Part shown: positions 931 to 54,534 of the stretch, in pieces | Numbering within the stretch: the first letter of the stretch is position 1 | Layout of the letters: each line of letters opens with the position of its first letter | NCBI GenBank assembly: GCA_951812325.1 | Contig: OX638294.1 | Span: forward strand, 1,138,527 to 1,202,526 | Reading direction: 5' to 3' | DNA length: 64,000 nucleotides | Source: an uncultured Thermoanaerobaculia bacterium | GTDB taxonomy: Bacteria; Acidobacteriota; Thermoanaerobaculia; Multivoradales; Multivoraceae | Notes under the pieces: generated by a model | What the model was told of the DNA's origin: nothing | Databases searched by the model: none | Seen by the model: only the letters and a program-made list of their open reading frames with translations | Made by a program: the position numbers and the translations under genes

Positions 931-1413
931 GTGTTGAGCCGCGCCCGCAGATTCCCGGTTCCGGCCGCCGTCGTCGCGGCGGTCGCGCTTGGATCGTGCA
1001 CCGCCGAGGAGACCGGCCCCCCCTTTCGGGAGGTCGCTGGTACACGGCTGTTGATGGCGTCGGTCATGGAACCGGCCGCCGACCACCTCTGGGCTTCGGT
1101 CGGCTGGATCCTCACCGCCGAGGGCGAGGAGCATATTCGGCCGCGGACCGACGAGGAGTGGACGCTCGTGCGCAACTCCGCGGTCACGATCGCCGAGTCG
1201 GGCAATCTCCTGATGATGGACCGGCGAAAGATGGACGACGAGGACTGGGTCGCCTGGAGCCGGGACCTGATCGATGCCGGCGACGCCGCGATGCAGGCGG
1301 CCGACGCGCGCGATGTCCAGGGCGTGTTCGACACCGGCGAACAGGTCTACTTCGCCTGCGCCGGCTGCCACGCGCAGTATTGGGCCAACGATCCGAATCA
1401 GTTCCGGCAATAG
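931..1413 (+). CDS. Lipoprotein with a C-terminal CxxCH haem motif; resembles class II cytochrome c (cytochrome c'/c556-like)
   Basis: Signal peptide with a lipobox (AVALGSC). The mature part is about 135 aa with a single CAGCH motif close to the C-terminus (FACAGCHAQYW), the arrangement seen in four-helix-bundle class II cytochromes c. GTG start. Confidence 0.5.
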   Translation: MLSRARRFPVPAAVVAAVALGSCTAEETGPPFREVAGTRLLMASVMEPAADHLWASVGWILTAEGEEHIRPRTDEEWTLVRNSAVTIAESGNLLMMDRRKMDDEDWVAWSRDLIDAGDAAMQAADARDVQGVFDTGEQVYFACAGCHAQYWANDPNQFRQ

Positions 1414-1459: not shown

Positions 1460-3025
1460 TTGCAACGCGGGCTGATCCTCCTCCACCGCTGGCTGGGTAT
1501 CGCCGGCAACCTGCTGTTCGTCGTCTGGTTCGCGTCGGCGCTGGTCATGATCTATGCGCGGATGCCGGCGCTCGATTTCGGCGACCGGCTGAACCGGCTG
1601 TCGCCTCTCGACCTGGACGCGGTTCAGGTGGCGCCGGCGCAGGCCGCGTCCGCAGCCGGTCTGGATGCCGAGAGCCGGGAGGCGGTTCAGATCCGCCTCG
1701 GCATGGCCGGCGACCGGCCGATCTACCGGCTGCGCACGGCGACCGGCTGGACCGCGGTGTACGCGGACACGGGCAGCCCGATGCTGCAGCTCGCCGAGGG
1801 GCAGGCGACGGCCATCGCCGCGCAGTTCGTCGAGCAGCCAGCCGGCGGCGCGACGCCGACGCCGACCGTCTACGACCGACTCCTCTCCCGCCCCGACCAG
1901 TGGACGCTGCAGCTTCGGCCTCTGCTTCCCGCCCATCGGATCCGATCGGGCAGCGACGTGCTCTACGTCTCCGACCGCACCGCCGAGGTCGTGCTGGAGA
2001 CGAGTGCGACGTCCCGGTTCTGGGGCGCCGCCGGCGCCGTCTTCCACTGGCTCTACTTCACGCCGTTGCGATCGCACACCACGCTCTGGTACCAGCTCAT
2101 CGTCTGGGCCTCCGCCGCCGGCTGCGCACTGACCCTGTCGGGCCTCGCCGTCGGCCTGATGCGCCTGATCCGGCGGAATCGCTCGCCCTACTCCGGCATC
2201 ATGCGCTGGCATCACTACAGCGGCCTCGCCTTCGGCGCCGCGGCGTTCACCTGGCTGCTGAGCGGCGCCCTTTCGATGGATCCCTTCGGCTGGCACGCCG
2301 GGAGAACGACGAGCCAGGCCCAGCATGCCGCGGTCGCCGGTGGAGGCCTGCGGCTCGCCGACTTCGATCTTGCTTCGATCCGGCCCCGCCTGGAGTCGCT
2401 CTCCGAGTCGTTCCCGACGCGCGAGGTCGAGTTTCTCTCGTTCGACGGCGAGCCCCTGCTGCTCGCGTACCGCCCGCCGGAATCAGGCAGGAGCGGCGGC
2501 TACCGCGCCGGCTGCTGCGGCGGCGGTCCTGCTGCGTTTCTTGAAACCGTACAGCCGTTCAAGCACCGGCTCGTTACGCTCGGCGGCGGAAAAACGCGGC
2601 GCTTCGACCGCGACGAGCTGATCGCCGCGGCCACCGCGGCGATGCCCGGGGCGCAGGTCGTCGACGCGGACGAACTGTCCGAGTACGACGCCTACTACGG
2701 CGACCGCAGGCACGGCCGCGATCCGCTGCCGGTCCTCCGCATCCGCTTCGACGATCCGGAGCGCACATGGCTCTATCTCGACCCGGCGCTGGGCCGCATC
2801 GTCCACCGCGAACAGCGCCGGAGCCGACTCGACCGCTGGCTCTATCGGGGCCTGCACCGGCTCGACTTCCCGGGCTTCTACGACCGACGCCCGCTATGGG
2901 ATGTCGTCGTGATCGTTCTGCTGCTGGGCGGCCTGTTCTCCGCGGCCTCGTCCTTCGTCCCGGCGGCAAGACGCCTCAGGCGGCACGGAGCACGCCTGAG
3001 GCGCAAGCAGCTGCAGAAGAACTGA
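1460..3025 (+). CDS. PepSY-associated TM helix protein (PiuB-like)
   Basis: N-terminus LQRGLILLHRWLGIAGNLLFVVWFASALVMIY is the characteristic PepSY_TM signature. There are several hydrophobic helices and a large periplasmic region. The start is taken as the in-frame TTG about 1460, because the upstream part of the 583-aa ORF overlaps the preceding gene. Confidence 0.7.
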   Translation: MQRGLILLHRWLGIAGNLLFVVWFASALVMIYARMPALDFGDRLNRLSPLDLDAVQVAPAQAASAAGLDAESREAVQIRLGMAGDRPIYRLRTATGWTAVYADTGSPMLQLAEGQATAIAAQFVEQPAGGATPTPTVYDRLLSRPDQWTLQLRPLLPAHRIRSGSDVLYVSDRTAEVVLETSATSRFWGAAGAVFHWLYFTPLRSHTTLWYQLIVWASAAGCALTLSGLAVGLMRLIRRNRSPYSGIMRWHHYSGLAFGAAAFTWLLSGALSMDPFGWHAGRTTSQAQHAAVAGGGLRLADFDLASIRPRLESLSESFPTREVEFLSFDGEPLLLAYRPPESGRSGGYRAGCCGGGPAAFLETVQPFKHRLVTLGGGKTRRFDRDELIAAATAAMPGAQVVDADELSEYDAYYGDRRHGRDPLPVLRIRFDDPERTWLYLDPALGRIVHREQRRSRLDRWLYRGLHRLDFPGFYDRRPLWDVVVIVLLLGGLFSAASSFVPAARRLRRHGARLRRKQLQKN

Positions 3026-3223
3026 ATCCCTGAACGACGCGGTGTATCCGGGGTCGGAGAACTGGCCGCCTGAGGCGCAAGCAGCTACAAGGGAACTGAA
3101 TCCGGCTGCGTCACGGCGCGGACCGTGCGGCACCGGCCCCGGGAACGTGAGGATCGCACTCGCATTCCCGGAAGCCGCCGCTGCGCGCCGAGTGCCGGCC
3201 GGACGGCCGGCGCGCCCGGTGGT

Positions 3224-3664
3224 CTACCGGGGCGGTTCAGTCGGGTCGCGACCGTCGCGCGGGGCGCCGGTACCCGAGGAACCCATGAAGATCTTGCTGC
3301 CGTCCTCGAAGGTCACGTCACGGCCGTTCGCGCGGCGTGAGCGGTCCTTGCTCTGGTAGCCGTCCACGATGATCACCGTGCCGGCCTGGAGGTCGTCCCG
3401 GGAGAGGCCGCGGCGCAGGAGGGTGTTGGGCGTGCCGCCCTCGACCATCCAGACGTGCTCGGTGCCGTCTTCCTCGGTGTGCTTGATGTGAATCCAGGTG
3501 TGCGGATTGACCCACTCGACCTTGACGACCGGGCCCTTCAGCAGCAGCGGACGGTTGGGATCAAACTCGGCGCCGAACGCGTGGTGAGCTACCAGGGGCG
3601 CCGCCACCGCGATTGCCGCGACGACAAGGCCGACCCCCGTGATGATCATGGCTCGCTTACTCAT
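3224..3664 (-). CDS. Small secreted protein, DUF6152-like
   Basis: N-terminal signal peptide. Motifs HHAFGAEFDPNRP...KGPVVKVEWVNPH resemble the DUF6152 family. 146 aa. Confidence 0.55.
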   Translation of the reverse strand: MSKRAMIITGVGLVVAAIAVAAPLVAHHAFGAEFDPNRPLLLKGPVVKVEWVNPHTWIHIKHTEEDGTEHVWMVEGGTPNTLLRRGLSRDDLQAGTVIIVDGYQSKDRSRRANGRDVTFEDGSKIFMGSSGTGAPRDGRDPTEPPR

Positions 3665-3739
3665 GGACGTCTCTCACTCCTCTGTTTGTGTCAGTGGTTC
3701 GGTTCGGTCAACAGACTCTAGCAGGATCCGGGCGCGGCT

Positions 3740-4825
3740 CTACTCTCCGGAATCGCCCGTACTGGCGGCCTTGGCCAGGGCGTCCTCCTCCAGAAGGCGG
3801 GCGCCGCGCATGATGTTGCCGAGGGCGTAGTTGCCCTCGTGACAGGCGTACTCGTAAACGAGGGCGTCGCTGCGAGGCCAGGCGTACTCACCGCTCCAAG
3901 GCGCCGTCCACACGTTCGGATCCTCGACGGTGAACTCGTATCGCAGGTGATCCGGACCCATCGGAGTGAACCGCTCGACCACATGCAGGTCGCGGGTCGC
4001 CGAACGCAGAGCCGGCCGGTCGGCGAAGTTCGTCGTGTCGATGACGAGAGTGTCGCCTTCCCACCAGCCGATCGAATCGCCCATCCACCGGCGCTCCGGC
4101 GCCGGGGCATGCTCGCCGCCGATGCGGACGACGCGCGCGTCGTGGACCATCTCGACCAGGATCATCACGTGGTCCTCCGTCTGCACGATCCGCTTCAGGT
4201 TGTTGTAGAGGGCCGGCAGCATCGGCGGCCCGCCGGTCGAGCTGAAGCCCAGCAGGCAGCGCTCCGCCAGCGGTCGCAGTTCCGGATCGTCGTAGGGGCC
4301 CGGCCCCTCCCGCTCGAGCCACCAGGCCTCGCCCGTGTTGGCGCGGAAGAAGCCCCTCCGGGCGGCGAAACGTTCCCGGACAGCCTCGGTCACCGGCGGA
4401 TGACGGCCATTCTTCGGGTCGACGATGATCGAGGTGCGGAACCTGCCGTCAACCTCGAAGACATCCGTCCCCCGCTCGATCCAGAAAGCGTTGTAGCCAC
4501 CGACGTTGCCGGCGGCGCCCGGCGAACCGTCGCCGCCCTCGGGGGGCGCTTCGCGGTCGGGATCGCTGACCTGACCCGCCTCCTGCAGGCGCAGACGCTC
4601 CTGCTCGGCGATCTTGTCGGCTTCCTCCCGCGACAGGTACAGATTGTCGCCAAACGCCTGCGGACGCGCCAGCGGCGTCAGGGTGCCCACGTTGTAGTAG
4701 CCGGAGATGTCGGGCCGGCCGGACGGGGTCCGGGCAAGCTCCTCGTCGCCGGCGGCCACGGCAGGCGCGGCGAGTCCGACGACGGCAAGAAGAACAACAG
4801 CAACCTTGAGTCCGGATTCGCGCAT
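3740..4825 (-). CDS. Secreted protein of unknown function (paralogue family A, member 1)
   Basis: Signal peptide MRESGLKVAVVLLAVVGLAAPAVAAG. Motifs GWWEGDTLVIDTTNF, LRYEFTVEDP and YEYACHEGNY are shared with the ORFs at 4902-5828 and 31754-32752. ATG at 4825 is preferred over the upstream TTG at 4870. Confidence 0.6.
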   Translation of the reverse strand: MRESGLKVAVVLLAVVGLAAPAVAAGDEELARTPSGRPDISGYYNVGTLTPLARPQAFGDNLYLSREEADKIAEQERLRLQEAGQVSDPDREAPPEGGDGSPGAAGNVGGYNAFWIERGTDVFEVDGRFRTSIIVDPKNGRHPPVTEAVRERFAARRGFFRANTGEAWWLEREGPGPYDDPELRPLAERCLLGFSSTGGPPMLPALYNNLKRIVQTEDHVMILVEMVHDARVVRIGGEHAPAPERRWMGDSIGWWEGDTLVIDTTNFADRPALRSATRDLHVVERFTPMGPDHLRYEFTVEDPNVWTAPWSGEYAWPRSDALVYEYACHEGNYALGNIMRGARLLEEDALAKAASTGDSGE

Positions 4826-4901
4826 GCTTGACCTCGCTTTGGCCCGTTGGCGGAAGCGGCGCGACACCAAGGGGCGCGACTCCCGACAGGCGGCGCCGTT
4901 T

Positions 4902-5828
4902 CTAGTCGACCAGCTTCATCCGCGGCAGTGGATTGCGGCGGTACTCGCCGTACATCAGCTCCTCGACGAACTCGACGCACCGGAAGTCCATCAGGCGGGC
5001 GTTCGGCTCCATCCGCCGGTAGAGCGGCATCTCGATCGTCCACGGCTCGGTGTACGTCATCGGATCGGTGAGCGTCGCCTCGTAGTGGAGGTGGTTCGGG
5101 CCGGCAACCGTGAAGCGCTCCTCGACCTGCAACTGGTTGCTGTAGTGGTTGCCCGAGCGGTCGAGCCAGCCGCCGCAGCCGGGCATGTCTTCCGCGCGCT
5201 CGGCGCAGTCCTTGGCCAGCAGGCCGCTGACGTCCACGACCAGCGTGTCGCCATCCCAACGGCCGTAGGACGTGCCCATCCAGCTGTCGACCTGGGACGG
5301 CTTCGGATCTTCCATGTAGATGTCGCGGACCGCGCCGGCGTACTGGTAGGCGATGAAGACCGCGTTCTCGCTGTGGAAGATCTGGAACGGCTGCGGCATG
5401 TACGTCGCACGCGGCACGCCGGGCAGGTAGCAGAAGACTTCCTGGTCGCGGGTTGACCAGTTCGCCATGTTCTCCATCTTCTTCGCGGCTGCCGCGTCCG
5501 TGTACGGGATCTTCCCGCCGCCCTTGATCACGCCCATGCCCGGGGGCACCGAGCCAACCGCGCCGAAGTTGAGAACCTCGGCCGCGGGCAAGGGACCGTG
5601 CGGACCCTCGCGCAACTGCATCGCGGCGCGGGCCATGTGCAACTCGAGGTCGTAGTTCGCCTCGTTCAGGGCCTGCCAGATGCCGTTCAGATCGGGCTTG
5701 CCGTCCGAGAGCCGGTTCGGCTCGAAGTCTTGGGCCGCAAGCGGCGCCACCGCCACGGCGAGAACCGCGACCGCAGCCACGGCAGTTCGAGAAAACGCGC
5801 TAGTTCCCAGTTTCATGACGTTGGCCAT
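4902..5828 (-). CDS. Secreted protein of unknown function (paralogue family A, member 2)
   Basis: Signal peptide. GRWDGDTLVVDVSG and HLHYEATLTDP motifs are shared with the 3740 and 31754 proteins. 308 aa. Confidence 0.6.
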   Translation of the reverse strand: MANVMKLGTSAFSRTAVAAVAVLAVAVAPLAAQDFEPNRLSDGKPDLNGIWQALNEANYDLELHMARAAMQLREGPHGPLPAAEVLNFGAVGSVPPGMGVIKGGGKIPYTDAAAAKKMENMANWSTRDQEVFCYLPGVPRATYMPQPFQIFHSENAVFIAYQYAGAVRDIYMEDPKPSQVDSWMGTSYGRWDGDTLVVDVSGLLAKDCAERAEDMPGCGGWLDRSGNHYSNQLQVEERFTVAGPNHLHYEATLTDPMTYTEPWTIEMPLYRRMEPNARLMDFRCVEFVEELMYGEYRRNPLPRMKLVD

Positions 5829-5969
5829 ACTCCTCTTTCGGCGAAACGCCGAGTTGTCTGAACGGAAGGAAGGTGAACCCTGTCACCTTAGGCGCACGGG
5901 GTCAACCCCAAGCGGTCCGCCCTGCCACGGGCTGCCAGGGTGCGACGAGCGTAACGCACCCTGTCGGCC

Positions 5970-7736
5970 TCAGGGCAGCGCGAAGACGAACAGCGTGTTG
6001 TTCGAGCTCGGACGCAGTTCCGCCGTCAGCCGGCGGAACGTCGACGTCGAGCCGCCCTCGGCGCCGGTGCCGACGGCCACGTACTGCCTCCCGTCCACCG
6101 CGTAGCTGATCGGGAAGCCGGTCACCGAGGAGCCGATGTTGATCTCCCACAGCACCTCGCCCGTCTCCTGGTCCAGCGCCCAGAAGCGGCCGCCGACGTC
6201 GCCGCCGAAGACCAGGCCGCCGCCGGTCGCGGCGAGCGACATCGTCGCGGGCAACCGCTCGTGGAGCCAGAGCGTCTCACCGGTCTCGGCGGAGATCGCG
6301 TAGACCGTGCCGAGCAGTTCCTTCCCCGGCGCGAACTGCGTGTCGTTTACCAGGGCGTAGTGCATCGCGCCGCGGCCGACGCGCGTCGTCATCCGGGAGC
6401 AGAGGTTGCGGAGCGGGTAGTACATCGCGTTGGTCAGCGGACTGTAGGCGCCGGCCTCCCAGTCCTTGCCGCCGAGGAGCGAGGGGCAGATCAGGCGTTC
6501 CTGTTCCAGCTCGGTGAACACGACTTCCGGGTTCAGGGCGACGGCGCCGGTCTCGCCGTCGATCCGTTCGATCACGTTCTGCGGCACCGTCGGCCGCGCC
6601 CACAGGAACTCGCCGGTCTCGCGGTCGAGCGTGTAGACCAGGCCGGTCTTGCCCGGCACACCGGTCACGACCTTGCGCATCTCGCCCGCTTCGATCCGCG
6701 GATTCCGCCAGGCGACGGCCTCGGCGTCCGGCGCGACCGCCGTGTCGACGAGCAACCGCTCGAAGGGATGATCCAGATCCCAGTGGTCGTTCAGGTGCTG
6801 GTAGTACCAGCGCACGCTGCCGGACTCGATCTCCAGCGCCAGCGTCGAGTTGTGGTACAGGTGGGTCTTCTCGTTGCCGCCGATCAGGAACTTCGGCGCC
6901 GGCGAAGTGACCGACGTGCCGACGATGAGGAGTTGAAGATCCGGGTCGTAGCTCGGCGCCATCCAGGAACCGACGTGGTGGCGGTTCTCGAACGGCACGT
7001 CGCCCCAAGTCTCGTTTCCGGGCTCACCCGGTCCCGGAATCAGCGGACGGCGCCAGAGCTCCTCGCCCGTCGCCGCGTCGTGGGCGGCGATGAAACAGGC
7101 CTCGGGGCCCCGGTGCGGCCGGCAGCTGCGCCCCGAGATCACGCGGCCGGCGGCAATGATCGGCCCCGTCGAGTGCCTCGCCGGGTCCTCCTCGTAGTCG
7201 ACGATCCGGGTCTCCCAGACCAGTTCGCCGGTCACCGCGTCGAGCGCGTAGGCGTAGCCGTCGTTCGCCGTGTCGATGATCAGTCCCCCGTAGATCGCGA
7301 GACTGCGGTTGACCGTCTCCAGACCGCCCACCCAGGTCGCGATGTCGTCGGGGATCGGCCGCTTGTACTCCCACAGGAGATCGCCCGCAGCAGCGTCGAT
7401 CGCCTGGGTCACGCTGCTCGGATTCGGGTAGTACATGACGCCGTCGTAGACGAGCGGCGTCCCCTGCTGGCTCCCCTCCTCGAGACCGCGCGACCAAGCC
7501 AGGGTGAGGTCCGCCACGTTCTCCCGGTCGATCTGGTCGAGCGGGCTGTAGGCCCAGCCGTTCTGGGTACGACGCCAGTGGAGCCAGTCCGCGGGATCGG
7601 GCTCCTCCAGCATCGCGTCGGTGACGGGAACGAAGGAGTCGTCGGACTGGGCGCCGGCAGGCAGGCCGATGGCCAGCAGAAGCGCGGGGACCACGACGAT
7701 CCGCAGCGTCAACCGAAGGACGGGCTCTCGACTCAT
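5970..7736 (-). CDS. PQQ-dependent dehydrogenase (quinoprotein alcohol/sugar dehydrogenase family), periplasmic
   Basis: 588 aa with a signal peptide and beta-propeller repeat pattern (PLVYDGVMYY, W-repeat motifs). The family is recognisable from the translation. Confidence 0.8.
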   Translation of the reverse strand: MSREPVLRLTLRIVVVPALLLAIGLPAGAQSDDSFVPVTDAMLEEPDPADWLHWRRTQNGWAYSPLDQIDRENVADLTLAWSRGLEEGSQQGTPLVYDGVMYYPNPSSVTQAIDAAAGDLLWEYKRPIPDDIATWVGGLETVNRSLAIYGGLIIDTANDGYAYALDAVTGELVWETRIVDYEEDPARHSTGPIIAAGRVISGRSCRPHRGPEACFIAAHDAATGEELWRRPLIPGPGEPGNETWGDVPFENRHHVGSWMAPSYDPDLQLLIVGTSVTSPAPKFLIGGNEKTHLYHNSTLALEIESGSVRWYYQHLNDHWDLDHPFERLLVDTAVAPDAEAVAWRNPRIEAGEMRKVVTGVPGKTGLVYTLDRETGEFLWARPTVPQNVIERIDGETGAVALNPEVVFTELEQERLICPSLLGGKDWEAGAYSPLTNAMYYPLRNLCSRMTTRVGRGAMHYALVNDTQFAPGKELLGTVYAISAETGETLWLHERLPATMSLAATGGGLVFGGDVGGRFWALDQETGEVLWEINIGSSVTGFPISYAVDGRQYVAVGTGAEGGSTSTFRRLTAELRPSSNNTLFVFALP

Positions 7737-7873
7737 ACTCGGACTCCCAATTCCGTGCTCGACGCCCCGCCGCCCGATGGCGGCCGGGAGGTCGGCCCAC
7801 CCGATGCGCCAATTCAGGCTTCCTGCGCAGAGAGCGGCGAGCGTAGCGCAGGCAGCGGCGCTATCCTCGCGCG

Positions 7874-9124
7874 ATGCCTGCGACCGACAACGGCCGGATC
7901 GTGATCACCGGGCTCGGCGCCGTAACGCCGGTTGGCAATGACGTGACAACCTTCTGGCGGCGGATGAAGGCCGGGGACTCGGGCGCCGGCCCGATCACCG
8001 CGTTCGACACGGAGGCGTTCAACGTCAAGATCGCCTGCGAGGTACGCGACTTCGACCCAACCGAGTGGCTGGCCGGCAAGGCGGCGCGCAGGATCGCGCG
8101 CTCGACCCACTTCGCGGTGGCCTCGGCCAAGCAGGCGGTTGCCCACGCGGGGCTGGCAATCGACCCGGCCGTGGCGCATCGGCACGGCGTCGCTTTCAAC
8201 ACCGGGGGCGGGGGCGCGTCGAGCATGGAGAGCGGCACGCGCCGGCTCGTCGCGCGTGGTCCGCGGAAGGCGAACCCGTTTCTCGTCACCGACGTGATGC
8301 CGAACGCCGTCTCCTGCCTGATCTCGATCGAACTCGGCGTGACCGGGCCGACGACGACCTCCACCATGGCCTGCGCAAGCGGCAACTATGCCCTGCTCGA
8401 GGCCTACCGGCTGCTGCGCTCGGGCGAAGTCGACGCAGTGATCGCCGGCGGCACGGAGGCGGCCATCACGCCGCTGATCGTCGCGACCTTTTCGCGGCTC
8501 CAGGCTCTCTCCACCCGCAACGACGACCCGCCGGCAGCCAGCCGGCCGTTCGACGCCGACCGCGACGGCTTCGTCTTCGGCGAAGGCGCCGCCGCGTTCG
8601 TCGTCGAGACCGAGCGCCACGCGGAGAAGCGGGGCGCCCACGTCTACGCCGAGGTGCGCGGGGGCGCCGTGACCGCCGACGCGCATCACCTGACCGCTCC
8701 CCGCCCCGACGGCGCCGGCGCGGCGGCCGCGATGACGCGAGCCCTCGAATCGAGCAACACGGACCCCGGCGAGGTCGACGCGGTGTTCGCGCACGGTACG
8801 GCCACACCGCTCGGCGACGTCGCCGAAACCCTGGCGATCAAGGCGGCGATCGGCGACCGGGCCAAAGATGTCGCCGTGGCCGCCACGAAGTCCCAGGTCG
8901 GCCACATGCTGGGCGCCGCCGGCGCGGTATCGGCACTCGCCGCGGTCAAGACGATCGAGGAGGGCACGATCTGCCCGACGATCAACCTCGAGCAGCCCGA
9001 TCCGCAGTGCGACCTGGACTACGTGCCGAACCGGGCCCGTGCCCACCCCACCGGCGTCGCGCTCGTCAACGCCTTCGGCTTCGGCGGCCAGAACGTGGTC
9101 GTCGTCCTCGCCGACGCCAACTAA
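7874..9124 (+). CDS. fabF: Beta-ketoacyl-ACP synthase II
   Basis: 416 aa. Starts with the typical RIVITGLGAVTPVGN, has the active-site Cys in MACASGNYA, the HGTAT motif with catalytic His, and a GFGGQN C-terminus. Confidence 0.9.
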   Translation: MPATDNGRIVITGLGAVTPVGNDVTTFWRRMKAGDSGAGPITAFDTEAFNVKIACEVRDFDPTEWLAGKAARRIARSTHFAVASAKQAVAHAGLAIDPAVAHRHGVAFNTGGGGASSMESGTRRLVARGPRKANPFLVTDVMPNAVSCLISIELGVTGPTTTSTMACASGNYALLEAYRLLRSGEVDAVIAGGTEAAITPLIVATFSRLQALSTRNDDPPAASRPFDADRDGFVFGEGAAAFVVETERHAEKRGAHVYAEVRGGAVTADAHHLTAPRPDGAGAAAAMTRALESSNTDPGEVDAVFAHGTATPLGDVAETLAIKAAIGDRAKDVAVAATKSQVGHMLGAAGAVSALAAVKTIEEGTICPTINLEQPDPQCDLDYVPNRARAHPTGVALVNAFGFGGQNVVVVLADAN

Positions 9125-13358: not shown

Positions 13359-15181
13359 TGCGCTTCTCCTTCGTCTTCCTGCAGTTCAGCGAGCCGTGCC
13401 TCTACCACACCCCGCATCCAGTCGAGCGCAGGCCGCATGTCTTCGGGCACCTGAGCCGCCTGGGCATCGATCTGCTGCAGAACCGCCTCCAGCTGGACCG
13501 GGTCCCCGAGCTCCCGGATCGCCGCCGCATCGGACATGAGAGCCGTCCGCATCTCCGGCGGCAGGGCCTGCAGCTCGGCGGGAATGTCCCGGGCCTCGGT
13601 GCCCGCCTTGCGGTAGTACAGGCTGACCAGCCGCTTCGACGGCTCGAAGTACTTCGCCGCCACCCGCTGCACGTCCTCGGCAGTGACCTGATTCGTACGC
13701 TCCGCGACCGTGTTCAGGTAGCGCCAGTCGCCCATCGAGTCCATGATCGCCAACTGGATCATCAGGAAGAACGGCTCCCGAAGTTGACGGTAGGTGTCGG
13801 CCGACACGCGGTTCCTGACCTTGGCCAACTCGTCTTCCGGAACCGGCTCGGCGATCAGGTTCGCGACGATCCCGTCCCAGGCGGCCAGCAGCTGCTCGGG
13901 TGTGGCGGCGCCCTTCGTCTCGGCGCGCAGATTGAAGACGCCCGCGTACTTCCTGGGTTCGTGGAACGCGCTGGCGCTGGACGCGATCTCGGCGCCCTCG
14001 ACCATCTCCTCGTACAGACGGCCGGTGCGGCCGTTGAGCACACCCGCGATCACGTCGAACGCATACCCGTCGGCGTGGCCGAACGGCGCCGCGTGGTAGC
14101 GAATCTGAAGTTGCGGCTGGCAGTCGCACTCCGCGGTGAGCCGCTTCTCGGCCAGCTGCTCGGCCTCAAGCGTCACGACATCCGGAACCTCCCGGGCACT
14201 CCGCTCCAATCGACCGAAGTAGCGTTCCGCGAGTTCCCTGACCTCGGCCGGATCGAAGTTGCCGACCAGAATCCCGGTCAGGTTGTTCGGCGCGTAGTAG
14301 GCGGCGAAGAACTCGTCCGCCTGCGCCTTGCTGATCACCTCCAGGTCGGACGCCCAGCCGCCGACCGGCCAATGGTACGGGTGTGACTGCCAGAACATGG
14401 CGTCCGCCTGCTCGTCGTAGCGGCCCGTGGGCGTCGACTCGATGCGCAGGCGCCTCTCCTCATGGACCACGTCCCGCTCGGCGTAGAACTCCCGGAACAC
14501 CGGATTCAGCAGCCGGTCCGACTCGAGCCAGAACCAGAGTTCCAGCCGGTTCGCCGGCAGCTGGTTGATGTAGACCGTGAAGTCGTTGCTGGTGAAGGCG
14601 TTGATGCTCGTGCCGCCGCCATCCGCGTAGACCTTGTCCAGTTCATCCTTGACCATGAGTTCCCGCTGCTCCTCCACGAGCTCCTGGAACTCCGCGCGCA
14701 GGGCGTTCAGGGTGTCGGTGCGGTGGGCCGGGTCGTAGGGGTCGTCGATTTCGCCGAGCCTGAAGCGGCGGCGCTGCTCCCGCAATTCGGCGCGGATCTT
14801 CTCCTGAACCGCCTCCTGCTCCGCAATGATCTCGAGATCCCGCTCGATGTCCTTCGTGCCGATCGTGTGCGTCCCCTTGAACATCATGTGCTCGAAGAAG
14901 TGGGCGAGGCCGGTGATTCCCGGCCGCTCGTTCGCCGAGCCCACGCGGGCCGCCCATGCCGCCGCGACCGTGGTCAGCTCCGGGCGCCTCACGAGCAGGA
15001 AGCGCATCCCGTTGTCGAGCTCGAACTCCTCGACCGGCACCGCCGCCGCCGTCGCGTCCTGCGCCGCGGCGGCGCTGTGCGGGACGAGCGGCAGGACGAG
15101 CGCGAGCGCCGCCGCCGCCGCGACGCGGGCAAACCCGGATCCGGCTCCGCTGTTGGACAAGCTGTTGGACAATCTGCTCAA
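13355..15181 (-). CDS. M16 family zinc peptidase (pitrilysin-like), catalytic subunit
   Basis: 608 aa. Signal peptide. HFFEHMMFKGT carries the inverted zinc-binding HxxEH motif. Confidence 0.85.
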   Translation of the reverse strand: MSRLSNSLSNSGAGSGFARVAAAAALALVLPLVPHSAAAAQDATAAAVPVEEFELDNGMRFLLVRRPELTTVAAAWAARVGSANERPGITGLAHFFEHMMFKGTHTIGTKDIERDLEIIAEQEAVQEKIRAELREQRRRFRLGEIDDPYDPAHRTDTLNALRAEFQELVEEQRELMVKDELDKVYADGGGTSINAFTSNDFTVYINQLPANRLELWFWLESDRLLNPVFREFYAERDVVHEERRLRIESTPTGRYDEQADAMFWQSHPYHWPVGGWASDLEVISKAQADEFFAAYYAPNNLTGILVGNFDPAEVRELAERYFGRLERSAREVPDVVTLEAEQLAEKRLTAECDCQPQLQIRYHAAPFGHADGYAFDVIAGVLNGRTGRLYEEMVEGAEIASSASAFHEPRKYAGVFNLRAETKGAATPEQLLAAWDGIVANLIAEPVPEDELAKVRNRVSADTYRQLREPFFLMIQLAIMDSMGDWRYLNTVAERTNQVTAEDVQRVAAKYFEPSKRLVSLYYRKAGTEARDIPAELQALPPEMRTALMSDAAAIRELGDPVQLEAVLQQIDAQAAQVPEDMRPALDWMRGVVEARLAELQEDEGEAQ

Positions 15182-15554
15182 GAACGATCCCTCCTGACTG
15201 TGGTTCCCAGGCGCCGCCGCGCCAGGGCGTCGGCGCGGCGCCGGGACACTCTACCGTTTCGACCCGCACAAGAGCAACGCCCAAGACCGTTCCGAAGTCG
15301 GACTTCGACGACCGAATTCAGGCCACCGCTCCGGAATCCACTCCAGAATCGGCGACTCCGTGCCGGTACCGTTCTCAAGGTCCGGGAATAACGACCTCCT
15401 GCCCGCTCCTGCCCGCCCTCGGCGCAATGCACTGGACGCAGGAACCGCCCTGACGGCAACGGCACGGAGGATCGACATCCGCCCCGCGCCCGCCGCAGCC
15501 GCGCAGGCCGACGCGCTTCTTCAGACGGCAGCGACACGGCAGCGTCACGGAAGG

Positions 15555-15582
15555 TTGACATCCGCCCGGCGTCCGTCTATTG
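15555..15582 (+). promoter_or_regulatory. Sigma70-like promoter of groESL (TTGACA-N16-TATTGT)
   Basis: TTGACA at about 15555-15560 and TATTGT at about 15577-15582, spaced 16 nt apart, immediately upstream of the CIRCE element. Confidence 0.55.
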
Positions 15583-15609
15583 TCAGCACTCGCGCGGGAG
15601 GAGTGCTAA
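15583..15609 (+). promoter_or_regulatory. CIRCE inverted repeat (HrcA operator)
   Basis: TCAGCACTC-N9-GAGTGCTAA versus the consensus TTAGCACTC-N9-GAGTGCTAA (one mismatch). It lies about 105 nt upstream of groES. Confidence 0.85.
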
Positions 15610-15715
15610 CAGCGACCGCCTGAGCGCCGGCGATGCCGGCATCCGCAGTTTCGCACAGCACCTCAACGCCCGCCGCGAAGAACACAGCCCACCGACAACC
15701 AACACAAGGAGGAGT

Positions 15716-16009
15716 TTGCTGGTGAGTGTACGTCCGCTTCATGACCGGGTTCTCGTCAAGAGGCTCGAAGAGGAGGAGCAGGTCCGGGGAGGCATCATCA
15801 TCCCTGACGCTGCGAAGGAGAAGCCGCAGGAGGCCGAGGTAGTCGCCGTCGGTCCCGGCAAGGTACAGGACAACGGCGAGCGTTCCGCGCTCGACGTCAG
15901 CATCGGTGACCGCGTACTGATCGGAAAGTACTCGGGCAGCGACATCAAGGTCGACGACGAAGACATGGTCATCCTGCGCGAGGACGAGATCCTCGCGGTC
16001 GTGGAATAG
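15716..16009 (+). CDS. groES: Co-chaperonin GroES
   Basis: 97 aa: [17 protein letters not shown]...[30 protein letters not shown] ribosome-binding site upstream. TTG/GTG start. Confidence 0.95.
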
Positions 16010-19110: not shown

Positions 19111-21077
19111 CCGAAGTTCTTGAGCTTCTGCGGCCCCGTGATGGTCGATAGTCGTTGCCAGGCTTGGGTTTGCGGGTTGTTGGCCGGTCGTTCGGGGGCG
19201 CATATCGTAGCCATGTAAAAATGAGAGAAGAGGTAGACAGTCACGACGATCTAGAGTACAATGCGAAGCCATGTACATCGAGAGCATACGCAACCGGAAC
19301 TCGCCGCCTGCCGTCCTGCTTCGAGAGTCCTACCGCGAGCACGGCAAGGTCAAGAAGCGCACACTCGCCAACCTCTCCAAGTGGCCGGACCATCTCGTCG
19401 AGGGGCTGAGGACCCTCCTCAGGGGCGGCGTCGCACTGCCGTCTCTCGATGCCGCCTTCGACATCGTCCGCGCCAGACCGCATGGACACGTTGCCGCCAC
19501 GCTCGGCGCCGCCAGACGGGTCGGTATCGAGCCCTTGCTCGACCGGAGGCGGTCGAGACAACGCAGCCTCGCGACCGCGATGATCGCCGCGCGCATCCTC
19601 GATCCCCGGTCCAAACTCGCGACCGCGCGAGGACTCGCGTCCGAAACGATCACTTCGACCCTCGGTGAAGAACTCGGTGTCGAGGAGGCGTCGGCCAGCG
19701 AGCTCTACGAGGCGATGGACTGGCTGCTCAAGCGGCAACCGCGAATCGAGCGGCGCCTGGCCAAGCGCCACCTCGAGGAAGGAGCCCTGGTCCTCTGCGA
19801 CCTGACCTCGGTCTACTTCGAGGGCTCGTCCTGCGAGCTTGCCGTGCACGGGTACTCCAGAGACCGCAAACGGGGCAAGGTGCAGATCACCTTCGGCCTG
19901 CTCTGCAACCAGGACGGCTGCCCCGTGGGGGTCGAAGTCTTCTCGGGCAATACCGCGGACCCCTCGACAGTGGCCGCGCAGGTGCACAAGCTCAAGGAAC
20001 GCTTCTCGCTGGACCGGGTGGTCATGGTCGGCGACCGCGGCATGATCACCGATGCGCGCATCAGGGAGGACCTCGACCCCTCCGGACTCACGTGGATCAG
20101 CGCCTTGCGGGCGCCGGCGATCCGCTCCCTGGCCGAACAGGGCCACCTGCAGCTGTCTCTCTTCGACGAGAGAGGCCTCGCCGAGATCAGCGCTCCGGAG
20201 CTCTTCCCCTCAGAGCGGCTGATCGCGTGCAGGAACCCCCTGCTGGCCGACGAACGCGCCCGCAAGCGCCAGGAACTGCTCTCCTCCACCGAGGTCCAGC
20301 TCGAAGCCATCGTCAAGGCCACACGGCGCCAGAAGAACCCCTTGCGCGGCAAGGTCAAGATCGCCGCACGCGCCACGCGCGCCCTCGACCGCTTCAAGGT
20401 CGCAAAGCACTTCGAAACCGAGATCGAGGACGACAGCTTCAGCTATCGCCGCAATCAGGCACGCATCGACGAGGAAGCCGCACTCGACGGCTTCTACATC
20501 ATCCGCACCAACGTCCCCGAGGACCAACTGACCGCGGCCGATGCCGTGCGCTCCTACAAGAGCCTCAGCCGCGTCGAACGCGCCTTCAGGAGCCTGAAGA
20601 GCGTCGACCTCAAGGTGCGGCCCATCTACCATCGACTCGACGACCGGGTACGCGCCCATGTCTTCCTGTGCATGCTCGCCTACTACGTCGAGTGGCACAT
20701 GAGGCGCGCACTCGCACCCCTGCTCTTCGACGACGAAGACCACGACCACAACACCCGATCACCCGTCCTGCCCGCCCGCAGATCGGCCACCGCCATGGCC
20801 AAGGTCAACTCAAGGCGAACCACCCACGGATTCCCCGTACACAGCTTCCAGACACTCCTCGCCGACCTCGCCACGCTCACACGCAACCGGGTCCGAATCC
20901 AGCAAGCCGGCGACTCCACTGCCGATCTGCTGGCCACGCCAACACCTCTTCAGAACCAGGCCCTCAAACTCCTGGGCGTGAAACCCTGAGGACACGTACC
21001 CAGTAGGCTGCAACCCCAAATCGACGAAAAACCCCACCACTACAGGGGATTCCTCGATTCCGCGCCGAGAACTTCGG
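19111..21077 (+). mobile_element. IS1634-family (IS4 superfamily) insertion sequence, about 1.96 kb, with imperfect terminal inverted repeats and a target-site duplication
   Basis: Left end CCGAAGTTCTTGAGC and right end GCCGAGAACTTCGG (reverse complement CCGAAGTTCTCGGC) are flanked by a duplicated CCTAAG / GCCTAAGCC (6-9 bp; the exact boundary is ambiguous). The uninterrupted target GGCGGCCTAAGCCGGAATCAGGTCT is present in the paralogous locus at about 26310-26336. Confidence 0.8.
19271..20989 (+). CDS. IS1634-family DDE transposase
   Basis: 572 aa. MYIESIRNRNSPPAVLLRESYREHGKVKKRTLANLSKWPDHLVEGLR is the hallmark N-terminus of IS1634/IS1549-type transposases. The DDE region is downstream. Confidence 0.9.
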   Translation: MYIESIRNRNSPPAVLLRESYREHGKVKKRTLANLSKWPDHLVEGLRTLLRGGVALPSLDAAFDIVRARPHGHVAATLGAARRVGIEPLLDRRRSRQRSLATAMIAARILDPRSKLATARGLASETITSTLGEELGVEEASASELYEAMDWLLKRQPRIERRLAKRHLEEGALVLCDLTSVYFEGSSCELAVHGYSRDRKRGKVQITFGLLCNQDGCPVGVEVFSGNTADPSTVAAQVHKLKERFSLDRVVMVGDRGMITDARIREDLDPSGLTWISALRAPAIRSLAEQGHLQLSLFDERGLAEISAPELFPSERLIACRNPLLADERARKRQELLSSTEVQLEAIVKATRRQKNPLRGKVKIAARATRALDRFKVAKHFETEIEDDSFSYRRNQARIDEEAALDGFYIIRTNVPEDQLTAADAVRSYKSLSRVERAFRSLKSVDLKVRPIYHRLDDRVRAHVFLCMLAYYVEWHMRRALAPLLFDDEDHDHNTRSPVLPARRSATAMAKVNSRRTTHGFPVHSFQTLLADLATLTRNRVRIQQAGDSTADLLATPTPLQNQALKLLGVKP

Positions 21078-31753: not shown

Positions 31754-32752
31754 TCAGCCGCCCGACGTCCCCGCCGCCCTGGCGGCCGCCTCGGCTTCCG
31801 CGTCCTCCGCCCGGGCGCCGCGAAGCAGGTTCAACATGCCGTAGTTCCCCTCGTGGCAGGCGTACTCGAACATCGGCAACGGGTTCCTCGTCATCGGCAC
31901 GACGGCCGTCCACCGTCCGGTGAAGGACTCCGGATCGTCGATCGTGTACTCGTAGACGAGCCGGTCCTGCTCCACGCGGGTGAACCTCTCGGTCAGGCGC
32001 ATGTTCGGGCCCGAACCCCGGAAGCTCGTCTGGTCGGTGAAGTTCGTCGTCACGACGACCAGGGTGTCCCCTTCCCAGTGGCCTCGCGAGTCGCCCCGCC
32101 ACTGGCGGACGTCCTCGGGCAGCGGGGAGCGTCCGTCGAGCGGCACGATGCGCGAGTCGTGCACCATCTCGACCAGCAGCGCGACCGTCTCCTCGGTCTG
32201 GAAGATCTGGACGTTGTTGTTGTACGCACTCGGACTCATCGGCGGCCCGGCGTTGAAGCCCAGGATGCACCGTTCGGCGACGCCGCGGTCCTCGGGCCCG
32301 TGGGCGGGTCGGCGGCGCGCCGCGGTGCGCTCGGCAACCCGTTGCTTCGCCGCCTGGGTCAGCTCGGGAATCCGGCCGTCCGGCGGATCGACGACGAGCG
32401 ATGTGCGCCGATCCTCGGTCAGCTTGTCCCCGTAGTCCCACCAGAACTGGTTGTAGGCGTTCGCCACGTCCGCCTGAGCCGAGAGACCGTCCTCGGTGCG
32501 CCGGTCCTTGTTTCGCCGCGCCAGCGTCCGCTGCTCGAACTCCGCCGCCTCTTCGCCGCTGAACCGCTCCTGCTCGCCCAGCTCCTCCGGACGCTCGAGC
32601 GGCGTGATCGTCCGGAAGTCCCAGACCCCGCGCAGGTCGGGCGCGCCCCAGGGAGTGCGATCAAGCTCCGGCGCGCCTTGTTGCGCGGCGAGGGGAGTTC
32701 CAGCCAACACGACGATGGCGAACACTGCGATCGGCGTCTTGCGTTTGCCCAT
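31754..32752 (-). CDS. Secreted protein of unknown function (paralogue family A, member 3)
   Basis: Signal peptide. GHWEGDTLVVVTTNF, LVYEYTIDDP and FEYACHEGNY motifs are shared with 3740-4825. Confidence 0.6.
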   Translation of the reverse strand: MGKRKTPIAVFAIVVLAGTPLAAQQGAPELDRTPWGAPDLRGVWDFRTITPLERPEELGEQERFSGEEAAEFEQRTLARRNKDRRTEDGLSAQADVANAYNQFWWDYGDKLTEDRRTSLVVDPPDGRIPELTQAAKQRVAERTAARRRPAHGPEDRGVAERCILGFNAGPPMSPSAYNNNVQIFQTEETVALLVEMVHDSRIVPLDGRSPLPEDVRQWRGDSRGHWEGDTLVVVTTNFTDQTSFRGSGPNMRLTERFTRVEQDRLVYEYTIDDPESFTGRWTAVVPMTRNPLPMFEYACHEGNYGMLNLLRGARAEDAEAEAAARAAGTSGG

Positions 32753-52172: not shown

Positions 52173-52536
52173 CGGGGGAGGACGACGAGGCCGGGATTCG
52201 ATCTGGAGCTTGATCCATCACGCTCTCCTTGAAGGCAGGTACTCGAAGGCAGGTAGTCGTGGCGCCAGGATGGCCGGTGATCCGCAGGGTCACCTTCTCG
52301 CCGCCGCGGTTGGGGAGCTGGCTGGCTGGCTGCGAGCAGAGGAACGAGCGACGCCGCTCTTCAGGCAGGGGGAGTTTAGCTTGTCTTCGTCCAAACGCAG
52401 AAGTGCTTGATTTTGCTGGGCTAACGCCAGGCGGCGGCGCGCGACGCTCGCTCCGAGGCCGCCGGGACCCCACTCCCCTCAGGTGGCCCTGCGCGGGCGA
52501 CGAACCCGGTCCGGACCTCGCTGCTACTGTTCGTCG

Positions 52537-54534
52537 ATGCTCAGCCAGAGGTGTTGTCGGGTGAGGTGGCTGCCGGTCGGGCTTGCGCTGGCGGTCGGCG
52601 GCGCGGCTTTGGCCCAGGAGCCTCTGGACACGGACTGGCCGGTGACCACGGGCAACAACGCGAGTCAGCGGTACGCGCCGCTTGAGCAGATCGATCGGGA
52701 CAACTTCGGGGAGCTCGAGGTCGCCTGGCGATGGTCGTCGCCGGACAACGAGTTGATGACCGGGGATGGCGCAACGGGCGGGCGGCGCATGACGCCGCGA
52801 AACCACGAGGCGATTCCGATCAAGGTGGGCGACCGGCTCTACGTGACGACCGGCTACGGGCAGATCGCGGCGATCGATATCGAGCGGGGGAAGAGCTCCT
52901 GGACCTACGATCCGAAGGCCTACGTTCACGGCCGGCCGACGAACCTCGGCTTCACCCACCGGGGCGCCTCGTACTGGAAGGACCCGGACCTGCCCGGCGA
53001 AGGCGGCCGGCTGGTGTGGGCTGGAGGCGACTCCTTCCTGCGGGCGGTCGACACGCTGAGCGGCGAACCGATCGCGTCGTTCGGAGACGGCGGCGCCGTG
53101 GACCTCACCCTCGGTCTGCACCGGGAGGTGTCGCGCCGGGTCTACAGCGTGAGTTCGCCGGTCACGCTGTGCCGCGACGTGGCGATCGTCGGTTCTTCGA
53201 TCTCGGACGGTCCGCGCGCGCCGGAGGCGCCGCCTGGGGACGTGCGCGGATTCGACGTCCGCACCGGGGAGCAGCTCTGGACCTTCCACTCCGTCCCGCA
53301 GGAGGGGGAACCCGGGCGCGATACGTGGGAGAACGGTTCGTGGAAGGTCAGCGGCAACACGAACGTATGGACCCTGATGAGTGCGGACCCGGGGCTCGGC
53401 CTCGCCTACCTGCCGTTCGGAACGCCGACCAACGACTGGTACGGCGGGCATCGCCTCGGCGACAACCTCTACGCCGAGTCGCTCGTCGCGGTCGACTGCG
53501 AGACCGGTGAGCGGCGCTGGCACTTCCAGACGGTCCACCACGGCCTGTGGGACTACGACCTGCCGACGCCGGCGATCATCGGCGACATCGAGGTCGAGGG
53601 CCGGTCGATCCGCGCGGCGATGCAGCTCTCCAAGCAGGGCTTCCTCTACGTCTTCGACGCCCGCACCGGCGAAGACGTCTGGCCGATCCTGGAGCGCGAA
53701 GTGCCGCAGACCGGCATTGTCGGCGAGCGGACATCGCCGACGCAGCCCTTCCCCACCAGGCCGCCGGCCTTCGAACGCCAGGGCATCGGCCCGGACGATC
53801 TGATCGACTTCACGCCGGAACTCCGCGCCGAGGCGATGGCGATTCTCTCCCGGTACCAGTACGGCCCGATGTTCACGCCGCCCACGGAACGCGGCACGTT
53901 CCTGATGCCCGGCTACGGCGGCGGCGCGAGCTGGCCCGGCGGCGCGTTCGACCCGGAGGCCGGCATGCTCTACGTGCCGTCCTTCACCTGGCCCGTGGTC
54001 AACACGCTGCGCAAGCCGGACCCGAGCCGGTCGTCCTTCGACTACGTCGGCCGCATCAACAGCGATGTCCGCGGGCCCCGCGACCTGCCCCTGGTCAAGC
54101 CGCCCTACTCCCGGATCACCGCCTACGAGATGAACCGCGGCGAGATCGCCTGGACCGTGCCCCTGGGCTACGGCCCGCGGCGCCATCCGGACCTGGCCGC
54201 GCTCGACCTGCCGCCGCTCGGTTCGGGCGCCCGCGGCCACGTCGTGGCGACGAAGACGCTCCTGTTCGTGACCGCCGGCCGGTCGCTCGCCTTCCGCGGG
54301 ATCGACCGGGAGGCCACGGCCGAGGGCGCGGTACGCGACGACTGGCGGGTCGAGACGCCGGCGCTGCGGGCGTTCGACAAGGCGACGGGGGAACTCGTTG
54401 GCGAAATCGAGCTGCCGGCGCACACCGACGGCAGTCCGATCACCTTCCTGCATCGCGGCCGGCAATACCTGGTGTTCGCGCTCGGCGGACGCGGCGCGCC
54501 GTTCGAGCTGATCGCCTACCGGCTTCCGGCCTGA
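52537..54534 (+). CDS. PQQ-dependent dehydrogenase (quinoprotein, glucose/alcohol dehydrogenase-like), periplasmic
   Basis: Signal peptide MLSQRCCRVRWLPVGLALAVGGAALAQEP. Repeated W-containing propeller motifs (WAGGDSFLRAVD, WTFHSV.., WHFQTVHHGLWDYD). Confidence 0.8.
   Translation: MLSQRCCRVRWLPVGLALAVGGAALAQEPLDTDWPVTTGNNASQRYAPLEQIDRDNFGELEVAWRWSSPDNELMTGDGATGGRRMTPRNHEAIPIKVGDRLYVTTGYGQIAAIDIERGKSSWTYDPKAYVHGRPTNLGFTHRGASYWKDPDLPGEGGRLVWAGGDSFLRAVDTLSGEPIASFGDGGAVDLTLGLHREVSRRVYSVSSPVTLCRDVAIVGSSISDGPRAPEAPPGDVRGFDVRTGEQLWTFHSVPQEGEPGRDTWENGSWKVSGNTNVWTLMSADPGLGLAYLPFGTPTNDWYGGHRLGDNLYAESLVAVDCETGERRWHFQTVHHGLWDYDLPTPAIIGDIEVEGRSIRAAMQLSKQGFLYVFDARTGEDVWPILEREVPQTGIVGERTSPTQPFPTRPPAFERQGIGPDDLIDFTPELRAEAMAILSRYQYGPMFTPPTERGTFLMPGYGGGASWPGGAFDPEAGMLYVPSFTWPVVNTLRKPDPSRSSFDYVGRINSDVRGPRDLPLVKPPYSRITAYEMNRGEIAWTVPLGYGPRRHPDLAALDLPPLGSGARGHVVATKTLLFVTAGRSLAFRGIDREATAEGAVRDDWRVETPALRAFDKATGELVGEIELPAHTDGSPITFLHRGRQYLVFALGGRGAPFELIAYRLPA

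Follow-up and report, generated by a model that had tools for sequence, protein, structure and literature searches.

A conserved gene cassette of DUF6152 and secreted proteins of an unnamed family, next to a PQQ dehydrogenase in an uncultured Thermoanaerobaculia bacterium

The 64,000-nucleotide stretch of DNA analysed here (the window: contig OX638294.1, positions 1,138,527 to 1,202,526, from an uncultured Thermoanaerobaculia bacterium) encodes three secreted paralogues of a family that has no name, here called A, B and C, of which A and B lie in tandem between the gene of a pyrroloquinoline quinone (PQQ) dehydrogenase and that of a DUF6152 protein. The original prediction, made from the sequence of the window, had centred on the paralogues together with the PQQ dehydrogenase. 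The comparison of related loci shifts the emphasis, since the conserved unit is the gene order B, A, DUF6152, and not the paralogues plus the quinoprotein. A and B are most tightly associated with DUF6152, with a cytochrome c'-like protein and with a membrane protein, which the original prediction had missed, while the PQQ dehydrogenase is a real but optional neighbour and not a defining part. The family, its subtypes and the cassette are undescribed in the databases and literature searched, although the fold itself is already known. The genes concerned are the following.

Protein A: 3740-4825, minus strand; 361 amino acids from its ATG; cassette-type member of the unnamed family
Protein B: 4902-5828, minus strand; 308 amino acids; short, divergent paralogue
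Protein C: 31754-32752, minus strand; 332 amino acids; solo A-type paralogue
DUF6152 protein: 3224-3664, minus strand; 146 amino acids; exported, with a modelled oligonucleotide/oligosaccharide-binding (OB) fold; assigned by a Pfam match
PQQ dehydrogenase: 5970-7736, minus strand; 588 amino acids; soluble, periplasmic; directly upstream of B
Cytochrome c'-like protein: 931-1413, plus strand; 160 amino acids; C-terminal CAGCH haem-binding motif and lipobox-like LGSC in the signal sequence
PepSY_TM-type membrane protein: ~1460-3025, plus strand; start approximate, set from a 71% identical orthologue

Conservation of the gene order B, A, DUF6152

The open reading frames (ORFs) of 82 loci were classed by hidden Markov models (HMMs). 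These loci were the window, the related gammaproteobacterial locus L001 and 80 loci from a genome scan, all of the latter being metagenome-assembled genomes (MAGs) or other uncultured genomes, with one genome per species. Altogether they contained 116 A-type genes, which were distributed over four arrangements.

B, A and DUF6152 in order on one strand: 27 A-type genes
B and A only: 6 A-type genes
A and DUF6152 only: 3 A-type genes
Solo, like C: 80 A-type genes

The full order spans Acidobacteriota, Gammaproteobacteria (Pseudomonadales MAGs) and a Gemmatimonadota contig, and DUF6152, recorded in the original prediction as adjacent, does belong with A and B. In the loci fetched, B stands beside A and/or just upstream of DUF6152, and in two of them (L011 and L022) DUF6152 follows B directly. 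Moreover, one relative (P0257) carries two B-type domains in a single chain, which fits a working unit of two barrels. The apparent fusion P0010 (505 residues) was rejected, as it contains an internal duplicated segment and is probably an assembly artefact.

In the window, the minus-strand order is PQQ dehydrogenase, B, A, DUF6152, with intergenic gaps of 141, 76 and 75 bp; these gaps, together with the Pfam matches, confirm the tandem beside the dehydrogenase and the adjoining DUF6152 gene, and all three family members occupy the minus-strand ORFs in which they had been placed. The cytochrome and PepSY_TM genes are convergent with the cassette. In the closest relatives of the window, an extra A-type gene lies between the PQQ dehydrogenase and B (L086, L087, L004 and L082; 7791-8888 in L087), with the altered motifs YEFACQEGNY and EWMHWAR. 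DNA alignment shows the window to be without exactly that 1.1 kb, the junction falling at 5937-5944, so that the window represents a derived, two-paralogue form of a three-paralogue array.

Variants of the cassette also occur in sphingomonads. On a plasmid of Novosphingobium humi (L167), DUF6152 comes after a short barrel protein, and two DUF6644 genes and a cytochrome c'-like gene lie on the other strand; a replicon of Sphingobium sp. TomTYG65 (L166) has two barrel-DUF6152 pairs beside two DUF6644 genes and one or more TonB-dependent receptors.

Partners of the cassette

For the analysis of partners, all ORFs of the 82 loci were clustered and then followed by HMM searches, the loci being divided into 35 with DUF6152 and 47 without it. 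Four partners were confined to the former.

Cytochrome c'-like protein, ~160 amino acids: 16 of 35 loci with DUF6152, 0 of 47 without; Fisher p ~1e-7
DUF6644 membrane protein, usually in two copies: 9 of 35, 0 of 47; Fisher p 2e-4
PepSY_TM: 5 of 35, 0 of 47; Fisher p 0.012
HupE/UreJ_2 with a 171-residue protein: 3 of 35, 0 of 47

All 18 members of the cytochrome c'-like cluster have a C-terminal CxxCH, the cluster has a weak match to the Pfam family Cytochrom_C_2, and a lipobox-like signal is present in the copies of the window and of L001. Every locus with DUF6644 or PepSY_TM also has the cytochrome c'-like gene. The window is of the PepSY_TM type; its gene at ~1460-3025 matches that family weakly (E 3.9e-4, below the Pfam cut-off), and orthologues follow the cassette in five loci.

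The DUF6152 protein of the window matches PF19649 with 99.4 bits (E 1.3e-28, against a cut-off of 27 bits), the same domain is found in all its 120 best homologues, and these are 70-95% identical to it and include Acidobacteriota, Gemmatimonadota and Pseudomonadales. DUF6152 is thus conserved to a clearly higher degree than A and B, which have only ~60-70% identity to their best matches, and 71 columns are invariant in an alignment of 57 sequences. Its signal peptide ends in V-x-A, after which His-His forms the predicted mature N-terminus. The Ala of the cleavage site followed by HH[AS]F..FD, as well as P54-H55, W72 and E75, are invariant down to 29% identity (sphingomonad members), and in close homologues H59 and a C-terminal tail, GSSGTGAPRDGRDPTEPPR, predicted to be unstructured, are almost invariant too. 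The N-terminal His, standing beside other invariant His and carboxylate residues, suggests a putative metal site, by analogy with those of the 'histidine brace' kind. The small periplasmic protein of a 2026 preprint on lanthanide-binding PQQ enzymes has no conserved domain and is therefore not DUF6152 but a different protein.

Two known systems offer comparisons. As in copper uptake by CopC/CopD and YcnI/YcnJ, to which the likeness is one of analogy, DUF6152 is a small periplasmic protein with a His at its mature N-terminus, encoded beside a small multi-helix membrane protein; DUF6644 faintly resembles DUF2214 (E 0.0027). CopC, however, is a cupredoxin-like sandwich, whereas DUF6152 models as an OB fold with no sequence relationship to it and a metal site that is putative, and the cassette adds two barrel proteins and a c-type cytochrome. 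In the second place, FoxB and other PepSY_TM reductases of the inner membrane donate electrons to ferric siderophores in the periplasm. For the cassette, PepSY_TM is only one of three alternative membrane partners, and neither siderophore receptor nor siderophore biosynthesis genes were seen next to the cassette in the MAG loci.

A large family without a name

No Pfam-A or NCBIfam family was matched by A, B or C at E <= 0.1, and sequence searches of the PDB, with single proteins as well as with profiles, returned nothing credible. In keeping with the original prediction, these proteins cannot be placed in a named family. When 21 family members were compared with the profiles at E <= 1, only three unrelated chance matches appeared, none of them to DUF1329 or to LolA-type proteins; the assignment to DUF1329, which had been named beforehand as an example of an outcome that would refute the original prediction, and any LolA-like assignment are accordingly rejected. 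What the family has in common with the lipoprotein-sorting-like DUF1329 proteins is that both are uncharacterised exported proteins of Gram-negative bacteria. Neither A, B and C nor the 21 members matched the Pfam models of calycin families (lipocalin, FABP and nitrobindin) at the level of sequence profiles, and no precomputed Pfam domain was attached to the 240 homologues listed in the searches with A and B.

The family is nevertheless a large one. Searches with A and with B each returned at least ~8,000 significant relatives, and every relative listed with a source name is called 'hypothetical protein'. A profile of the A and B types collected 24,474 clusters (50% identity) at E <= 1e-3 and 12,812 at E <= 1e-10; for 10 diverse representatives, the cluster members are all environmental sequences. 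Among the Acidobacteriota, the loci come from Vicinamibacteria, Thermoanaerobaculia, Holophagales, Bryobacterales and Terriglobia, and among the Gammaproteobacteria from Pseudomonadales, Candidatus Multivoraceae, Candidatus Azotimanducaceae and Pseudohongiella, further loci belonging to Gemmatimonadota and to one Limisphaerales genome. The relatives closest to the window are acidobacterial MAGs, and several related MAGs, to judge from their names, look like sponge or coral metagenome bins. In the literature, no papers were found on DUF6152, on DUF6644 or on the motifs ACHEGN and WEGDTLVV.

Homology, motifs and conserved residues

The likeness of A, B and C is due to homology and not to chance. 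A and C are 41% identical across 358 residues, that is, over their full length (E 2e-76), while B is a distant paralogue, 30% identical to A across 139 C-terminal residues (E 5e-16) and related to C with E ~1e-11. A tblastn search of the window with A, B and C disclosed no further paralogues. In all three N-termini, as read from the sequence, a basic n-region precedes a hydrophobic core of 12-18 residues, the cleavage site is AxA-like and a lipobox is absent; they are thus predicted Sec-type signal peptides, in agreement with the original description of A, B and C as secreted paralogues with a signal peptide each. The start of A is supported by a homologue (P0001) of 361 residues with 100% coverage; a TTG codon 45 bp upstream has no homologue support.

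The three motifs that had been ascribed to all members hold in part. The first occurs as WWEGDTLVID, RWDGDTLVVD and HWEGDTLVVV, so that A and B conform to W-(E/D)-GDTLV-(V/I)-D, whereas C terminates in V instead of D. The second reads LRYEFTVEDP in A and LVYEYTIDDP in C, as expected, but B, with LHYEATLTDP, has T where E or D had been required. The third, YE(Y)ACHEGNY, occurs in A and, as FEYACHEGNY, in C; at the same position B has MDFRCVEFVEELMYGEY (FRCVEF) and retains only the Cys and the Glu.

A division into subtypes emerged from 137 representatives, at most 50% identical to each other. Kept in 80-99% of them are G36, P38, D39 and G42 (the PDLxG motif); R54, R130, S132, P137, G140, P143, E182, R189 and C190; Y207, N208, Q215, E225, H228 and R231; W247, G249, S251, G253, W255, GDTLV, E284, Y296 and D302; and E325, A327-C328-H329-E330-G331-N332 and R343. 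As judged from sequence, this set defines the A type, to which both A and C belong, C retaining E-M-V-H-D-x-R and YACHEGNY. B-type proteins and the shorter sphingomonad forms retain only PDLxG, both Cys, R231, W255, E284-R285, P303, W310 and R318; B itself keeps PDLxG, both Cys, the R, W and ER positions and the GDTLV barrel core, and is without E-M-x-H-D and CHEGNY. A Gly-rich motif, G[AS][AS]GN[VI]G, distinguishes the cassette further, being found in 28 of 34 cassette-type A proteins and in 10 of 78 solo A-type proteins; A carries it as GAAGNVGG, and C lacks this loop.

These patterns weaken the original suggestion of a metal or cofactor site at a Cys-His-Glu motif, since the Cys is invariant even where the His is lost. 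Given that both Cys residues are invariant with or without the His, and that the protein is exported, a structural disulfide is likelier than a cofactor ligand, and the pair probably links the N-terminal half to the helix after the barrel. The His falls in another group: E225, H228, D229, H329 and N332 are conserved in the A type only, and H228, D229 and H329 are absent from B. These five residues, together with several Arg, are the foremost candidates for a site of binding or catalysis. The same polar set could instead be a salt-bridge network holding the N-terminal half on the barrel.

Fold

The structure prediction and comparison that the original prediction had proposed as a check gave an answer for one half of the protein. 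The AlphaFold2 model of A, built from an alignment of 111 sequences, has a predicted local distance difference test (pLDDT) value of 80 and a predicted template modelling (pTM) score of 0.78. Its N-terminal half is irregular and contains a few helices; eight strands follow one another at 210-318 (pLDDT mostly >90), and after this barrel comes a long helix which starts at C328-H329-E330. In structure comparison, the model scored 9.5 with an Oplophorus luciferase subunit, 9.4 with a retinol-binding protein of the fatty-acid-binding protein (FABP) family, 9.0-7.3 with other FABP-family and FABP-fold proteins, 7.2 with nitrobindin/THAP4 and about 6 with lipocalins. A Foldseek search of the PDB agrees, with FABPs at E ~4e-3, and for the N-terminal ~200 residues no structural match was obtained. 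The modelled barrel of A is thus an eight-stranded member of the calycin superfamily, the likeness being at the level of the fold only.

The family differs from the known calycins (FABPs, lipocalins, nitrobindin/THAP4) in its ~200 additional irregular N-terminal residues, its two invariant Cys and conserved set of polar and charged residues, its export to the periplasm and its being encoded in a cassette with an OB-fold protein. Two redox roles for A, B and C were considered and rejected on similar grounds: that of a cupredoxin, because the modelled fold is a calycin and the Cys is kept in B and in short forms without the His, and that of a cytochrome, because CxxCH is absent and the sole Cys-His is C328-H329, in A and C.

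Proposed function and alternatives

From its genomic context and conserved residues, the cassette could be a periplasmic redox module which handles a metal, a metal chelate or another small ligand, a reading that is put forward tentatively and falls somewhat short of being probable. Two of the three membrane partners come from families associated with metals, PepSY_TM through the reduction of ferric siderophores and HupE/UreJ through the uptake of nickel or cobalt, and a redox module for a metal or metal chelate is accordingly favoured for the cassette. In this scheme, the polar set of the A type (R54, R130, R189, Y207, N208, Q215, E225, H228, R231, E284, Y296, E325, H329, E330, N332 and R343) would line a putative pocket for one common polar or anionic group, most of whose residues the B type has lost, and B and A would act as a pair, possibly as a heterodimer. 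DUF6152 would bind the metal at its N-terminal His-His, H55 and E75. The barrels would hold the ligand, to or from which the membrane protein and the cytochrome would carry electrons; with DUF6152 taking the metal, these two partners might also move the ion between the membrane and the periplasmic proteins. The PQQ dehydrogenase, where present, may use the module or feed it. For C and the other solo A-type paralogues, the favoured role is that of a helper or an enzyme acting alongside periplasmic enzymes.

Several observations weigh against the proposal of a redox module. No cytochrome or membrane partner is seen in 19 of the 35 DUF6152 loci, some of whose contigs are short, and no cluster of TonB-dependent receptors appeared among the ranked conserved neighbours in the MAG loci. 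Conserved Arg and Glu are roughly equal in number and could be structural salt bridges rather than a pocket. Furthermore, 80 of the 116 A-type genes are solo, one locus of 20 kb having as many as about ten fragments, and such a pattern suits substrate-specific catabolic helpers better than it does a metal system.

A stronger form of the same idea is that B, A, DUF6152, the cytochrome and the membrane partner together make up an undescribed periplasmic system for the acquisition or reduction of a metal (copper, nickel, iron or a lanthanide). There, the barrels would hold the chelate, the cytochrome would give the electrons and the ion would pass to the His-His OB-fold protein. The solo A-type paralogues would act for metallo- or quinoenzymes of the periplasm, the adjacent PQQ dehydrogenases being an instance, perhaps by loading them with metal or cofactor. 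In this complete form the idea is rather unlikely.

Equally doubtful is the view of the barrels as lipocalin-like periplasmic carriers, each paralogue binding its own hydrophobic or poorly soluble substrate and passing it on to a periplasmic enzyme in the neighbourhood, be it a PQQ dehydrogenase, a sulfatase or a hydrolase. The modelled calycin fold would suit such carriers, and so would the many paralogues per locus, their mixed neighbours (PQQ dehydrogenase, sulfatase, short-chain dehydrogenase and acyl-CoA enzymes) and the fusion of A-type domains to three unrelated types of protein. Nevertheless, paralogues at <=50% identity keep the same ~20 polar residues, which argues for one shared chemistry or ligand group and not for many hydrophobic cargos, and carriers of this kind would leave DUF6152, the cytochrome and the membrane partners unexplained.

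With a similarly low likelihood, A-type proteins may be stand-alone periplasmic enzymes that have a calycin barrel as their scaffold and either no cofactor or one metal ion, B being a non-catalytic partner. The conservation of E225, H228, (D229), R231, E284, Y296, H329, E330 and N332 across the 137 representatives, and the loss of H228, D229 and H329 in B, speak for this view. However, no match to known enzymes was obtained in sequence or active site, the conserved charges may be structural, and there is no constant neighbour that would suggest a substrate.

Relation to the PQQ dehydrogenases

The explanation which fares worst is one of those offered in the original prediction, namely that A, B and C are dedicated accessory or redox partners of the PQQ dehydrogenases, as electron acceptors, chaperones for PQQ or metal insertion, or substrate feeders. 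The dehydrogenase of the window is itself well identified as an enzyme of the alcohol/sorbose dehydrogenase type (Pfam PQQ, 193.7 bits, E 7.7e-57), and its closest structure is PDB 4cvb (residues 27-588, E 7e-125). Against TIGR03075, the methanol/ethanol subfamily, it scores 323.8 bits, below the cut-off of 480, and it is therefore a relative and not a member of that subfamily; its second-best NCBIfam match, the 'acido-empty-quinoprotein' model, is well below its own cut-off. An Asp two residues past the catalytic Asp marks the lanthanide-dependent quinoproteins; the enzyme of the window has W-D-L-D at this place and the 4cvb enzyme W-D-S-E. A second PQQ dehydrogenase of a different subtype lies at 52483-54534 on the plus strand (683 amino acids, Pfam PQQ E 6e-176), with no member of the A/B/C family adjoining.

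Adjacency does recur. The order PQQ dehydrogenase, B, A, DUF6152 is found again in a Pseudomonadales MAG and in Holophagales relatives, the closest relatives have the extra A-type gene directly after the dehydrogenase, and PQQ dehydrogenases are the commonest enzyme family near A-type genes. A second set of 80 metagenomic loci was centred on PQQ dehydrogenases 63-95% identical to that of the window, and in it an A-type gene occurs within 300 bp of the central dehydrogenase 17 times; by a rough estimate, A-type genes take up ~12% of the slots flanking the dehydrogenase, compared with ~4-5% of the genes 3-6 kb away. One protein (P0330) looks like a true fusion, combining a PQQ dehydrogenase with an A-type domain which starts at its mature N-terminus, after a linker of ~6 residues and with no signal peptide. 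In addition, PQQ is a tricarboxylate, a kind of ligand for which the five conserved Arg would be suitable.

The co-occurrence that the original prediction had proposed to test is thus visible to some extent from the side of the dehydrogenase, whereas, from that of the family, only ~19% of the 116 A-type genes have a PQQ dehydrogenase within 5 kb (7 of the 36 in cassettes and 15 of the remaining 80). The density of these enzymes around A-type genes is flat with distance, the cassette is also found with no PQQ dehydrogenase within 10 kb, and among the loci centred on the dehydrogenase the full cassette follows it only in the two nearest relatives. Other proteins share the association: A-type domains are also fused, again without signal peptides, to two proteins in which a quinoprotein domain is absent (P0251 and P0287), one a squalene-hopene-cyclase-like repeat protein and the other a hydrolase-like protein of DUF3089, and in four loci solo A-type genes lie directly beside sulfatases. 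Moreover, the absence of CxxCH from A, B and C and the modelled calycin barrel, which is not a cupredoxin, speak against such partners. Hence, of the proposed accessory link, the recurring adjacency and the single fusion stand, while the dedication to quinoproteins appears more unlikely than any of the explanations considered above.

The known helpers of quinoproteins provide a further contrast. Like MxaJ/XoxJ and cytochrome cL/XoxG, the proteins of the family are periplasmic and, in the window and some relatives, can have their genes beside that of a PQQ dehydrogenase. A, B and C share neither the periplasmic-binding-protein fold of XoxJ nor the CxxCH haem site of XoxG and show no Pfam or NCBIfam homology, and most members of the family are not beside a PQQ dehydrogenase at all. 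The loci centred on the dehydrogenase (L088-L165) often contain tandem arrays of two or three PQQ dehydrogenase genes interspersed with A-type genes, and the two families appear to have expanded together, interspersed in the same genomes.

Other features of the window

Protein C lies ~26 kb from A and B, flanked by a gene for a major facilitator superfamily (MFS) transporter and by ABC-2 permease genes. A scan of 2900-8000 gave one promoter-like site, within gene A, and no terminators. In the raw ORF list, the cytochrome and PepSY_TM frames overlap by ~140 nt, the listed PepSY_TM frame beginning too early. A DDE transposase gene at 19271-20989 on the plus strand (DDE_Tnp_1, E 7e-14) points to an insertion sequence in this chromosomal region. 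A large leucine-rich-repeat protein is encoded at 49305-52067 on the minus strand, and L001 has an ankyrin/Sel1-repeat protein at 14012-15982; repeat proteins of this eukaryote-like kind are characteristic of bacteria living in symbiosis with sponges and corals.

Significance

The family runs to ~24,000 clusters (50% identity) for which neither Pfam nor NCBIfam has a model and no structure has been solved, and it is among the larger blocks of protein "dark matter". Acidobacteriota and Gammaproteobacteria of the sea and of soil are rich in it, among them, as the names of the bins suggest, symbionts of sponges and corals. It now has handles: a modelled calycin-type fold, subtypes and a conserved set of genetic partners. 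Furthermore, the cultured sphingomonads that carry a variant of the cassette make experiments possible. If the quinoprotein link were true, a missing helper of many uncharacterised PQQ dehydrogenases would have been named; if the cassette does act on metals or in redox, it would constitute a new periplasmic pathway and would give roles to two further families, DUF6152 and DUF6644.

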